From positions 1 to 27,285 of the IMG/VR virus record IMGVR_UViG_2724679238_000012: a stretch of DNA of 27,285 nucleotides; one strand, written 5' to 3'. Below are positions 3,955-6,643 of the stretch, piece after piece. The translations under genes were made by a program, and so were the position numbers. Position 1 is the stretch's first letter; each line of letters begins with the position of its first letter. The stretch is from a virus. Its lineage: Duplodnaviria; Heunggongvirae; Uroviricota; Caudoviricetes. The notes under the pieces were generated by a model. It worked only from the letters and a program-made list of their open reading frames with translations. It did not search any database and was not told the origin of the DNA.

Positions 3955-4143
3955 GTGGTAGTGCACTTTAACATCGGGAGAATAATCGTGTCATCCAAGG
4001 TTAATTATGAGTCGCTGGCATCGGTCATGCCGCGTAATGAACAGGAAACAGATGCTGTAGTGGACCCTGTAATCGCTGAAATGAATGCTCGCCTGGAGGC
4101 TGAATTTGCAGCTGAGAATGAACATACCACCCAGGGCGACTAG
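3955..4143 (+). CDS. Small acidic hypothetical protein (start uncertain; possible GTG at 3988)
   Basis: 62-aa ORF; GGGAG RBS 7 nt before in-frame GTG at 3988. Confidence 0.3.
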   Translation: MVVHFNIGRIIVSSKVNYESLASVMPRNEQETDAVVDPVIAEMNARLEAEFAAENEHTTQGD

Positions 4144-4747
4144 GACTGTTTTTTGTGTCGGTAGCGGTCCGTCACTCACTCGTGAGGACTGTGCTGCTAT
4201 AGAAAAAACTGGCTGTTCAATCATCGCGGTTAACAATTCCTGGCAGATGTTCGATGACATTTATGCCTTATACGCCGGTGATTTGTCATGGTGGAAGCAA
4301 TACGGATCCACCATACCGGGAGGGAGATTCCGCAAAGTGACAGCCAACCTGGCGGCGGCGAAATCATTTTCGTTGGAGTACAGGCGATATTGTGGACCGG
4401 CGGAAGGGGTAAATAGCGGCGCGCAGGCTATCAGTCTGGCTGCTGAATCAGGGGCTGAAGTAGTGGTATTAGTCGGCTATGACTGTTCTCTGCAAAACGG
4501 CCTTCATTGGCATGGCGCGCACCCTCAAGCACTACGGAATCCAACGCAGGTGTCTATTTCAAAATGGCAACAGCAGTTCCTGGATACCCGCAAAAAACAC
4601 GCAGATTTACATATTTTGAATGCAAGTAGGAGCAGTGCAATTCAATGTTTCCCAAGAATAAATTTAGAGGCAGTGATCGCGTTATTATCGTCGGCAGTGG
4701 CCCAAGCGCCGCAAACTTTGTTGCGCCGCGCGGAGTGCCGATTATAG
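4118..4747 (+). CDS. Rossmann-like protein with GSGPS motif, resembles MptE-like/DUF115 family (paralog 1)
   Basis: ORF track 4085..4747; I prefer the internal ATG at 4118 (MNIPPRATRTVFCVGSGPS). Motifs VFCVGSGPS, IIAVNNSW, VVVLVGYDCS...HWHG. Family assignment from memory of motif shape only. Confidence 0.5.
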   Translation: MNIPPRATRTVFCVGSGPSLTREDCAAIEKTGCSIIAVNNSWQMFDDIYALYAGDLSWWKQYGSTIPGGRFRKVTANLAAAKSFSLEYRRYCGPAEGVNSGAQAISLAAESGAEVVVLVGYDCSLQNGLHWHGAHPQALRNPTQVSISKWQQQFLDTRKKHADLHILNASRSSAIQCFPRINLEAVIALLSSAVAQAPQTLLRRAECRL

Positions 4748-5271
4748 CGGTCAATGGGGCCATCGACTGGCTGAACCGCGCTTCTTATTTTTTCACACTT
4801 GATCCATCGCCAGACAATATGCGGCGCGTTGGTCGTGGCCGCCGTCGCCGTGGTGTTTGTTATTGCATGGCACTACCCGATGTTAAAGAACGTGAAGTCA
4901 GAGACGGCGTTCTGTGCTTCCGTCGTGTGGCTGAACGTGGCATGGAGCCAAAAAATACGAATTCTCCCGAGTGGTGGGCGTGGCGCTGGTCCGCACATTT
5001 CGGACTTTGCGAAGATGAGAATGAAATTGCCAGCGGCAATAGTGCATATGGCGCTCTGAACCTGGCTTTCCATATCGGATTCAAACATGTCGCCCTGGTG
5101 GGCGTTGACGCTACACAAGAACCACGCGTTCACTCCGGCGGCACGCCAAAAAATCTAAGTCACCTGCCTTTGTTATTCCAGTCTGCGCGTGAACGGATTG
5201 ACGTTGTTTCATGCGGGAAAATGGGAGGTATTCCGCAGATGACTCTTAAAGAATGGCTGAAGAATACATGA
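4645..5271 (+). CDS. Rossmann-like protein with GSGPS motif, paralog of upstream gene (paralog 2)
   Basis: 208-aa ORF; [24 protein letters not shown] mirror motifs of the upstream gene; overlaps neighbours at both ends. Confidence 0.5.
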
Positions 5272-5945
5272 TGGCACCCACAATTTATCACCGTATCGAC
5301 GGTACCAAATACAGGAATGTCTGGGTTGTTGGTGATCTGCATGGTTGCTACACCAGACTGATGTCCGAACTCCATCGTGTGGATTTTGACCCGGCGCAGG
5401 ATTTACTGATATCGGTCGGCGACCTTATCGATCGCGGTACTGAAAATGTCGAATGTCTGGAACTATTGCAGATGCCCTGGTTCAGGGCAGTGATGGGGAA
5501 CCATGAGCGGCTGATGATTGATGCGTTAAGTCCAGATGGCAACGTGAATAACTGGCTAATGAATGGCGGACAATGGTTCTTCATGCTGGACACTGATCAG
5601 GAAATATTAGCCTGGGCGCTGGTGGAGCTGGTAAAGCGTCTGCCCTATATCATTGAGTTGAACACCGGGCAAGAAACTATCGTTATAGCCCATGCCGACT
5701 ATCCGGATAATGAATACCAATTCGGTAAGGAGGTGCCGCTTTTCAACGTTGTCTGGGCGCGCGAGCGTATCAGTGATTCGATGGATGATATTGGTGGCGA
5801 AATTTCGGGCGCAGATCGTTTTATCTTTGGTCACACTCCGGTGAAAAGCCCGAAGACATTCTGGAATCAGCAGTATATCGACACTGGTGCCGTATTTTGC
5901 GGAAACCTGACATTGATGAAAGTGAAAGGTGATGGTGCAGCATGA
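5253..5945 (+). CDS. PPP-family Ser/Thr protein phosphatase (lambda PPase/PrpA-like metallophosphoesterase)
   Basis: Motifs GDLHG, GDLIDRG, GNHE present in order. Likely start at ATG 5268/5271 overlapping upstream stop (ATGA). Confidence 0.85.
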
Positions 5946-6643
5946 AGATTGCTTTAGTTTTTCGCTCTGGTGGTGACTATAACGCTTCCGATGTGCAGTG
6001 GCTGGTTAATCAACTGCCAAAAGGCTATGAAATTATTTGCCTGACAGACCTGAAGCGTTTACATGTACCTGGCGTCAAAGTTGTCCCATTGATCAACCAG
6101 TGGCAAAAGTGCCGTGGCTGGTGGGCGAAAATCGAGTTGTTCCGACCGGATATAACCGATGATCTGTTCTATCTGGATTTGGACACGGTTATTGCCGGTG
6201 ATATACGCCCAATCCTAGAGCATCCACCAACCAGCTTCACCATGCTTAGGGATTTTTACCATCCACAATATCGTGGCAGCGGTGCCCTGTGGATACCAAA
6301 TAGTGTTAAAGCGCATATCTGGAGTTCATTCTGGCAAGATCCGGAAGGTTGGATTTCTCGTTGTGTCACTACTGAGTGCTGGGGGGACCAGGGGTTCTTA
6401 CGAAAGGTTATGGGCGATGATACACCAGCATTTCAGGATCTGTATCCAGGATGGTTTGTAAGTTACAAGGCCGATGTTGTGGAACCTGGTTCAAAATATG
6501 CGAGCGCGCGTTACTCCAGGGGGAATGGGGCATTACCAAAAGACTGCCGAATAATCTTTTTCCACGGCAAACCGCGACCTCGCGAAGTGTCAGAGGATTG
6601 GCTTCCCCTTATCAGCTCATTTTTTGAGCGAGAATCAGAATAA
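5942..6643 (+). CDS. Putative GT-A-fold nucleotide-sugar transferase-like protein (DxD: YLDLDTVI)
   Basis: 233-aa ORF; ATGA overlap with phosphatase gene; [10 protein letters not shown]...FYLDLDTVI resembles GT-A DxD region. Assignment tentative. Confidence 0.45.

Follow-up and report, generated by a model that had tools for sequence, protein, structure and literature searches.

In this P1-like DNA, pmgO, pmgP and pmgQ represent the P1 version of a conserved enzyme module, newly recognized here, that recurs as a unit in many tailed phages. The occurrence of this sugar-transferase cassette inside the head-assembly genes of many unrelated phages suggests that these phages may place sugars on a virion protein. 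We assign a probability of roughly 45% to the reading that the cassette is a phage-encoded protein-glycosylation system acting on such a protein.

The window, meaning the whole 27,285-nucleotide stretch of DNA that was analyzed, contains the pmgN-pmgO-pmgP-ppp-pmgQ operon of reference P1 (AF234172/NC_005856), with 99.1% nucleotide identity over 3000 bases in a single aligned piece and the same annotated genes, order, and operators. Coordinates were transferred from the AF234172 annotation as window position equals record position minus 75507. The P7 equivalent, hdmA-hdmB-hdmC-ppp-hdmD, is 98.4% identical over 3 kb with order, operators, and promoter unchanged; the operons of both phages show no structural difference from the window, and the locus was found in 19 P1-like records. 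An earlier note on this DNA had placed the cassette outside the P1 core, a claim refuted by this identity and shared annotation; as annotation of these genes dates back to the P1 genome of 2004, the operon is an ordinary find in a P1-like sequence. The P1 and P7 reference annotations list just “putative morphogenetic function” or “head morphogenesis”, while RefSeq names the products by homology as alpha-2,3-sialyltransferase, metallophosphoesterase, and glycosyltransferase. Published knockouts and CRISPRi found the operon genes to be non-essential, and our full-text literature search returned no paper that addresses what pmgO, pmgP or pmgQ do or that describes an enzyme of the DUF115 type in phage heads.

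According to the P1 annotation, pmgN, Oppp (annotated in P7 as Op(hdm)), and PpmgN belong to the same unit as pmgO-pmgQ (see table). A consensus scan placed a promoter-like site at 3896-3924, overlapping PpmgN, and pmgN has a GTG start at 3988 with GGGAG just before it. For pmgO, the start at 4118 proposed earlier fits the homologs, in which 0-10 residues precede the CxxSGPS motif, better than the annotated one, and pmgN and pmgO would then overlap by 26 nt. The conserved domain of PmgO stops near 4676, and its C-terminal tail is not conserved. The four overlapping open reading frames described in the earlier note were borne out, with a pmgO-pmgP overlap of 103 nt and ATGA junctions at 5268-5271 (pmgP stop, ppp start) and 5942-5945 (ppp stop, pmgQ start); AGGAG precedes pmgP at 4628-4632, and possible starts of ppp lie at 5253, 5268, and 5271. 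The terminal hairpin flanked by two inverted C1 operators is likewise present. The palindrome around it folds at -26.9 kcal/mol (z -10.9), the hairpin is absent from the output of a simple terminator scan, and operator-like matches number 9 in the window against 0.2 expected by chance.

Table. Genes and regulatory sites of the operon in window coordinates.
Feature	Position	Strand	Basis and remarks
PpmgN, predicted sigma-70 promoter	3889..3915	+	AF234172 annotation; -35 at 3889-3894, -10 at 3910-3915
C1 operator Oppp (former Op83)	3928..3944	-	P1 annotation; minus strand reads TATGCACTAATTAATTT
pmgN, small acidic protein, first gene of the operon	3988..4143	+	P1 annotation; PHROG 2350, unknown function
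pmgO, Maf/MptE/GT42-fold enzyme	4118..4747 (annotated start 4085)	+	ORF, annotation, homolog alignment, fold
pmgP, paralog of pmgO	4645..5271	+	ORF, annotation, homolog alignment, profile comparison
ppp, lambda-type PPP-family Ser/Thr phosphatase	5268..5945 (annotated start 5253)	+	Pfam, NCBIfam, 1G5B alignment
pmgQ, GT8-like GT-A glycosyltransferase	5942..6643	+	DLD 79-81, GDQ 148-150, FHGxPRP 207-213
C1 operator OpmgRa	6645..6661	+	P1 annotation and operator scan
Hairpin then T-run, likely operon terminator	6670..6697	+	Fold and sequence; overlaps predicted PpmgR promoter
C1 operator OpmgRb	6694..6710	-	P1 annotation and operator scan

To follow the genes beyond P1, we scanned IMG/VR; the scan seeded with the PmgP alignment returned P1 copies only and was repeated with a Pseudomonas homolog as the first sequence. 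Genes at the 80 related loci were called on the same strand as the cassette. The PmgP family comprises ~650 representatives at 50% identity, and a fold search of BFVD returned mostly uncharacterized phage proteins. A check of co-occurrence upheld the association of PmgO, PmgP, and PmgQ, which travel together across phyla and are naturally fused in the combinations O-P, P-Q, and Q-P; SAM methyltransferases often accompany them, and pmgN was seen in P1-like loci only among the related loci compared. Most phages other than P1 have the major capsid gene on one side of the module and the head-tail connector genes on the other; the cassette comes directly after the capsid gene in, for example, a Citrobacter rodentium prophage (L003) and a Pseudomonas prophage (L004/L110), and collagen-like and Big_1 proteins are among those encoded nearby. 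The P1 cassette adjoins pmgR and tail/baseplate genes rather than the capsid gene. Phage-encoded transferases beside structural genes, with or without a methyltransferase, are characteristic of the cassette family in general. Chromosomal copies in Pseudescherichia sit among adhesin genes.

The phosphatase does not belong to this association. Ppp occurs within the O-P-Q cassette in the P1/P7 lineage only; it is missing from the cassettes of five P1 relatives (L111, L120, L123, L126, and L137) and from every non-P1 locus, and D6 has it alone, and on these grounds we reject the single four-gene functional unit that had been proposed from the gene overlaps. By this distribution, ppp is a P1/P7-lineage insertion into the cassette, outside the ancestral module. 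Its assignment as a lambda-PPase-type enzyme holds, given the GDLHG, GDLIDRG, and GNHE motifs, a full-length alignment to 1G5B (residues 6-224, E 1.3e-94), and scores of 59 bits to Pfam Metallophos (cut-off 21.5) and 272 bits to NCBIfam PRK11439. All metal-binding and catalytic motifs are common to Ppp, the lambda protein phosphatase (NinI/ORF221, PDB 1G5B), and PrpA/PrpB of E. coli, whereas the gene context differs: the phosphatase lies among nin-region genes in lambda and D6, but in P1 it sits tightly between pmgP and pmgQ.

PmgO and PmgP both contain the GSGPS, IAVN, and LVGxD motifs on which their paralogy had been proposed, and although pairwise BLASTP is weak (E 0.004), their family profiles align over 155 columns well above chance (probability 97.8%, E 1.2e-12). 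Searches of PDB sequences identified no relative, whether run with PmgO, PmgP, and PmgQ as single sequences, which gave chance-level matches only, or with the PmgO and PmgP family profiles, which found nothing, so that a comparison of folds was needed. The suggested MptE-like/DUF115 identity stands at the level of the fold, which is common to MptE, Maf, and Cst, but not at that of the Pfam family: PF01973 scores of 23.4 bits for PmgO and 21.0 bits for PmgP fall below the gathering threshold of 34.6 bits, and the match spans just the C-terminal third of the profile. Precomputed PF01973 matches are present in some homologs. Maf flagellin glycosyltransferases (e.g., PDB 5mu5), themselves DUF115/MptE-like, have ~630 residues and extra domains, whereas PmgO and PmgP (~200 residues, 16% identity) consist of the core domain alone, and no flagellin is involved. 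Conserved histidines (H130 and H132 in PmgO, H173 in PmgP) follow the GYD/GVD strand.

NCBIfam gave no match for PmgO or PmgQ, and PmgP faintly matched WaaZ, a Kdo transferase model (E 0.11). Because the profiles of PmgO and PmgP, compared by hhalign with E. coli WaaZ and a provisional Cst-II sequence, aligned over a single motif at 4-15% probability, we do not claim that these proteins are members of the Kdo-transferase or GT42 families. The likeness to the Campylobacter GT42 enzymes Cst-I and Cst-II amounts to just 7% probability for the PmgO family (6.9%, with 4.2% for the PmgP family, against the provisional Cst-II sequence), with just the NSG...GxD segment aligning. E. coli K-12 is not known to produce CMP-sialic acid (CMP-Neu5Ac), and the name “sialyltransferase” should therefore not be taken literally for PmgO and PmgP.

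For PmgQ, the GT-A-like assignment based on its DxD motif was confirmed by Foldseek, which matched it to the GT8 structures 6mw5, glycogenin, GlyE, and LgtC (E 3e-8 to 4e-7). Residues D79, L80, D81, H208, G209, P211, and P213 are invariant, and the DxD and C-terminal motifs align with 6mw5 and WaaJ. With E-values of up to 1 admitted, P1 PmgQ had no match in Pfam; for PF01501 (Glyco_transf_8) a homolog reached E 0.31 at best, and we thus grade the protein as GT8-like rather than as a GT8 member. It shares the GT-A fold, DxD, and H-x-x-G-x-x-K/R-P with GT8 enzymes (glycogenin, LgtC, GlyE, Skp1 alpha-GalT, and WaaJ/WaaO), but TM-scores are ~0.57 and identities 11-17%, and PmgQ is shorter (233 aa) with its own family-specific GWWxK motif. 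By fold and motifs, PmgQ is a predicted GT8-like GT-A transferase with a putative activity and donor.

Observed for the locus are its gene structure, the folds and paralogy of its products, their co-occurrence and fusions, the genomic position, and the sites of regulation; the enzymatic activities, donor sugars, and acceptor of the O-P-Q cassette are inferred. The conserved core of the C1-repressed operon would be a three-enzyme glycan-building module, in which the Maf/GT42/MptE-fold paralogs PmgO and PmgP may transfer a CMP-activated ulosonic acid and PmgQ may act as a metal-dependent (DxD) retaining hexosyltransferase with a UDP-sugar donor. CMP-Kdo is, to our knowledge, the only CMP-ulosonic acid donor in E. 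coli K-12. The three enzymes would work jointly in the cytoplasm, and tight translational coupling and natural fusions suggest that they may form a complex. Before assembly or while it proceeds, they would put a short glycan on a protein of the phage, most probably one belonging to the head or another part of the virion. This glycan would not be needed for plaques to form in the laboratory, and Ppp, inserted between pmgP and pmgQ and co-translated, would act separately as a lambda NinI-type protein phosphatase. As single-gene deletion mutants of P1 exist (PMC9024508), virion glycosylation is directly testable in this phage.

The cassette could instead remodel the host envelope during the lytic cycle, altering either the LPS core, the region that P1 uses as its receptor, or a different glycan of the surface, and so blocking superinfection or adsorption of progeny to debris. 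The LPS core transferases WaaJ, WaaO, and WaaR belong to GT8, the DxD and H..G..KP of the PmgQ profile align with WaaJ (E 3.6e-4, probability 37%), PmgP has its faint match and motif-level alignments to WaaZ, and every identified host is an LPS-bearing diderm. However, neither the WaaZ nor the WaaJ match is significant, and no membrane segments are evident on inspection of the sequences. Moreover, repression by C1 in lysogens argues against a lysogenic-conversion module, the position within late head operons in other phages would leave little time for new LPS to reach the surface, and the Pseudescherichia context ties the genes to surface proteins and not to waa genes. We consider envelope remodeling unlikely.

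A role in defense or anti-defense, in which an immune component or signaling molecule of the host is modified or the enzymes form a prophage-encoded defense, would suit genes that are accessory and non-essential in a temperate phage, and glycosyltransferases and phosphatases serve some phages against host immunity. Nevertheless, PADLOC returned no HMM match for the six proteins searched, published single knockouts left antirestriction activity unchanged, C1 repression in lysogens speaks against a prophage defense role, and a capsid-connector location is not typical of anti-defense loci; we hold this role to be quite improbable. Similarly doubtful is a small-molecule phosphoryl chemistry, with PmgO and PmgP acting as MptE/thiamine-pyrophosphokinase-like pyrophosphokinases on a metabolite or nucleotide and Ppp and PmgQ processing the product. 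Glycosylation of modified bases in phage DNA is very improbable: we know of no hypermodified bases in P1 DNA, genes for base hydroxymethylation or related precursors are found neither beside the P1 cassette nor among the commonest neighboring families, the cassette lies in head modules and not replication modules, and the Pseudescherichia copies are chromosomal, among adhesin genes. Such enzymes do exist in phages: two reports describe DNA-hypermodifying glycosyltransferases that are phage-encoded (10.1101/2023.12.21.572611; PMC13326640).

Returning to virion glycosylation, a more specific version would be that many Gram-negative tailed phages, including P1, O-glycosylate a virion protein using two Maf-like transferases that draw on host CMP-Kdo, a GT8-like hexosyltransferase, and often sugar methyltransferases. 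We give this version a small chance of being right; if true, a Kdo-containing protein glycan would be a previously unrecognized feature of phage particles. In the literature searched, virion glycosylation by phage enzymes has not been described outside actinobacteriophages, and its presence here would extend the phenomenon beyond them, with implications for the stability of phages, their recognition by the immune system, and phage therapy. In mycobacteriophages, tandem glycosyltransferases and an O-methyltransferase are reported to act on proteins of the capsid and the tail tube (PMC11600133; see also PMC12582341). The cassettes described here, with their proposed role in virion glycosylation, resemble these mycobacteriophage virion glycosylation cassettes (Freeman et al. 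2023) in combining tandem phage glycosyltransferases with a methyltransferase, but the enzyme families and hosts are different, with a Maf/GT42-like pair and a GT8-like transferase taking their place in phages of diderm bacteria.

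Four coupled genes with ATGA junctions, as the earlier note had described them, are borne out by the ORFs and by the junction sequence (pmgP-ppp at 5268-5271, ppp-pmgQ at 5942-5945), and pmgO and pmgP have a further 103 nt in common. The motifs it listed (GSGPS, IAVN, LVGxD, GDLHG, GDLIDRG, GNHE, and DxD) are all present in the translated ORFs or family alignments. C1-operator-like matches number nine in the window where 0.2 would be expected by chance, and the whole palindrome at 6645-6710 folds at -26.9 kcal/mol (z -10.9), consistent with the terminator that had been placed between two inverted C1 operators. 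This palindrome is long and nearly perfect, with a terminator-like hairpin inside it, and part of it coincides with the predicted PpmgR promoter. Its outer arms are the two operators, so that one 66-base stretch serves both to terminate the operon before it and to repress pmgR-pmgS. Directly before the operon, pmgM (3343-3921) has a sub-threshold match to the VRR-NUC nuclease domain (E 3e-4, 21.2 bits vs a 23.8 cut-off); it adjoins the cassette in all P1-like relatives and is already named as a VRR-NUC protein in one GenBank record.

Genes and regulatory sites of the operon (window positions)
Feature	Position	Strand	Remark
LPpmgL	farther upstream, ahead of pmgL		late promoter, P1 annotation
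Oppp	3928-3944		C1 operator upstream of operon, P1 annotation
PpmgN	upstream of operon		predicted sigma-70 promoter, P1 annotation
pmgN	3988-4143	+	GTG start; small gene overlapping the pmgO start, same operon
pmgO	4085 or 4118 to 4747	+	ORF
pmgP	4645-5271	+	ORF
ppp	5253/5268/5271 to 5945	+	ORF
pmgQ	5942-6643	+	ORF
OpmgRa	6645-6661	+	C1 operator, outer arm of 66-nt palindrome closing the operon
Hairpin then T-run	6670-6697		centre of 66-nt palindrome
OpmgRb	6694-6710	-	inverted C1 operator, other outer arm

Judging from their sequences, PmgO and PmgP are true but old paralogs, as had been proposed: pairwise BLASTP finds 14/36 identities (E 0.004), and family profiles built from 40 homologues apiece align over 155 columns with 97.8% probability (E 1.2e-12). 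The MptE-like/DUF115 fold also expected for them agrees with the structural matches of PmgO, which are led by the Maf flagellin glycosyltransferase 5mu5 (score 14.2, 165 residues aligned), followed by archaeal MptE pyrophosphokinase (11.6), Cst-I sialyltransferase and SteA (11.1 each), and thiamine pyrophosphokinases (8-10). Both families have a skeleton of GPS, VN, D, NSG, and GxD, and since each surrounds it with its own invariant residues (HWHGxH in PmgO, R161 and H173 in PmgP), both look functional. Homologues of PmgO begin just ahead of a CxxSGPS motif, which favours the start at 4118 over the annotated one at 4085, whose 11 extra residues occur in no homologue. The final ~20 residues of P1 PmgO, which lie in the pmgP overlap, are not conserved, and much of this overlap may therefore be an unconstrained read-through tail.

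PmgQ has no Pfam match, but its family profile matches a GT8-type Skp1 alpha-galactosyltransferase (E 2.6e-6) as well as GlyE, and its predicted model (pLDDT 94.6) matches glycogenin, GlyE, LgtC, and 6mw5 at E 3e-8 to 4e-7, in line with the GT-A-like transferase first read from its DxD motif. DLD and FHGxPRP are invariant across the family alignment and line up with DxD and H..G..KPW in GT8 enzymes, WaaJ among them. Ppp is homologous to lambda phosphatase along its whole length (1G5B, E 1.3e-94), the type of metallophosphatase it had been taken for.

We gathered related loci by using PmgP-family alignments to scan IMG/VR and one genome per species, and then searched them with HMMs of the O, P, and Q families. 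The three genes co-occur in Enterobacterales, Pseudomonas, Zhongshania, Brevundimonas, and Methylophilaceae, as well as in one Bacteroidota MAG and one Gemmatimonadota MAG, while Rhizobiales loci have only O and Q. All three are present in 35/80 loci, most of the others being truncated contigs, and junctions at which genes overlap or abut occur in distant loci too. The PmgP profile, used in an exhaustive HMM search, yielded 657 representatives at 50% identity; the natural O-P, P-Q, and Q-P fusion proteins among them are strong evidence of the three enzymes acting jointly. The single functional unit of four genes claimed in the earlier note narrows to an O-P-Q core, into which Ppp is an insert. 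Among the cassette loci searched, Ppp is confined to P1/P7-like loci and one Pantoea relative, and the P1 relatives L111, L120, L123, L126, and L137 have PmgM-O-P-Q-PmgR-PmgS without it (a separate P was not called in L126 and L137). Phage D6 (L109, MF356679 79990-80682) has ppp alone, among lambdoid nin-type genes and without O, P, or Q. Its ppp shares 89.7% nucleotide identity with that of P1 in unrelated flanks, which suggests that the phosphatase gene was recently exchanged horizontally on its own. Ppp seems to be a mobile, independent phosphatase of the lambda NinI type whose translation came to be coupled to that of its neighbours in the P1 operon.

The genomic setting of the cassette is mostly one of virion assembly. 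In a Pseudomonas prophage and most IMG/VR contigs, terminase, portal, prohead protease, and major capsid protein genes are followed by O, P, (methyltransferase), Q, and at times more enzymes, and then by a gp6-like connector, head completion protein, HK97 gp10-like, and tail genes. Counting Pfam families three genes to each side in 57 non-redundant non-P1 loci, we found Phage_capsid (17), portal (12), head completion and connector (6 each), ClpP (4), and S78 protease, collagen repeats, and Mu F (3 each) upstream, and head completion (19), HK97 gp10-like (18), tail completion and connector (8 each), and tail tube (7) downstream. Accessory genes within the cassette encode FkbM-type and other SAM methyltransferases and extra GT-A-like proteins. 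In P1 relatives the cassette is directly followed by pmgR, deletion of which yields tails and incomplete heads (PMC9024508). Part of the capsid-adjacent signal may reflect shared ancestry of related HK97-type head modules, as the capsid genes form a single cluster. At least four other arrangements count against this explaining the whole signal, namely before terminase (between lysis genes and terminase in a Citrobacter rodentium prophage), after portal, after a Mu F-like gene, and after a collagen-like gene and connector; P1, a myovirus, adds one further arrangement.

Major capsid proteins immediately upstream of the cassette have short Ser/Gly-rich tails past a conserved RPxAF motif, such as GSLSES, GNLSGAS, GSLKDGS, and AASSGS (L004:5155-6375, L095:6841-8214, L097:3396-4628, L122, L124, and L162), and these are possible acceptor sites. 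In Rhizobiales prophages (L104-L108), O, Q, and a Methyltransf_24 gene follow a collagen-repeat protein and gp6-like connector, making collagen-like phage fibres another candidate. The one non-phage setting is a chromosomal, apparently non-phage island in five Pseudescherichia genomes (L089-L093, e.g. L089:4357-10248), where O follows an inverse-autotransporter adhesin (IAT_beta and seven Big_1 domains) and the surrounding genes encode other Big_1/RCC1-repeat proteins, with P and Q next to ones that have Big_1 domains; here the enzymes may modify bacterial adhesins.

Our tentative reading, to which we give a probability of about 0.45, is that O, P, and Q form a cytoplasmic protein-glycosylation cassette acting on a virion protein, with both enzymology and acceptor inferred. 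It draws on the best structural match of PmgO being a protein O-glycosyltransferase, the profile alignment tying PmgP to PmgO, the GT8-like third enzyme, the methyltransferases that frequently accompany them, and the recurrence of the cassette in several head/packaging arrangements and once beside surface adhesins. The acceptor would be the capsid, a decoration or collagen-like fibre, or a neck component. Donors would be common host sugar nucleotides, as nonulosonic-acid synthesis genes are absent from the families flanking the cassette (three genes each side, 57 non-P1 loci) and every host identified is a diderm; in E. coli K-12, CMP-Kdo would be the natural CMP-activated choice. The proposal on donors is the weakest step of the model. 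Against the model in P1, the operon does not adjoin the capsid gene and has an early promoter under C1 control, and virion glycosylation is unreported in P1, though it was not sought (PMC9024508).

Remodelling of LPS or a receptor is made plausible by GT8 and WaaZ-like resemblances, but the GT8-WaaJ and WaaZ-like matches are not significant, and with operon regulation and cassette position also speaking against it we consider this unlikely. A pyrophosphokinase role for PmgO and PmgP, which the fold they share with such enzymes speaks for, is somewhat less probable still, and so is one in anti-defence or defence, for which there were no PADLOC matches and knockouts have no antirestriction phenotype (PMC9024508). 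Glycosylation of DNA is highly improbable given that no precursor-pathway genes lie nearby.

The earlier note had set the cassette outside the P1 core, yet these 3 kb have 99.1% identity to reference P1 (98.4% to P7), and 19 of the 21 phage records that match contain them in full. P1 annotation names pmgN, pmgO, pmgP, ppp, and pmgQ with "putative morphogenetic function", and in P7 the same genes are hdmA-D, "head morphogenesis". The typo "norphogenetic protein" of the P1 record has propagated into RefSeq names of PmgO and PmgP homologues, some PmgQ homologues are named "phosphohydrolase", and in vB_EcoM-Ro157c2YLVW a gene under this stretch is labelled "RNA-directed RNA polymerase L". Plating does not fall when pmgO, pmgP, ppp, or pmgQ is silenced by CRISPRi, and deletions are viable (PMC10695390). 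CRISPRi of pmgN drops plating ~100-fold, whereas its deletion is viable (PMC10695390); a block at this first gene may have effects missing in a clean deletion, e.g. polarity or unbalanced downstream enzyme expression. Of 29 mutants in the Gonzales et al. knockout library, 24 showed neither a plaquing defect nor altered antirestriction, and the operon proteins are absent among those detected in the P1 virion proteome (PMC9024508). Full-text literature searches found no paper on the function of pmgO, pmgP, or pmgQ. As a P1 locus, the operon is already known and ordinary.
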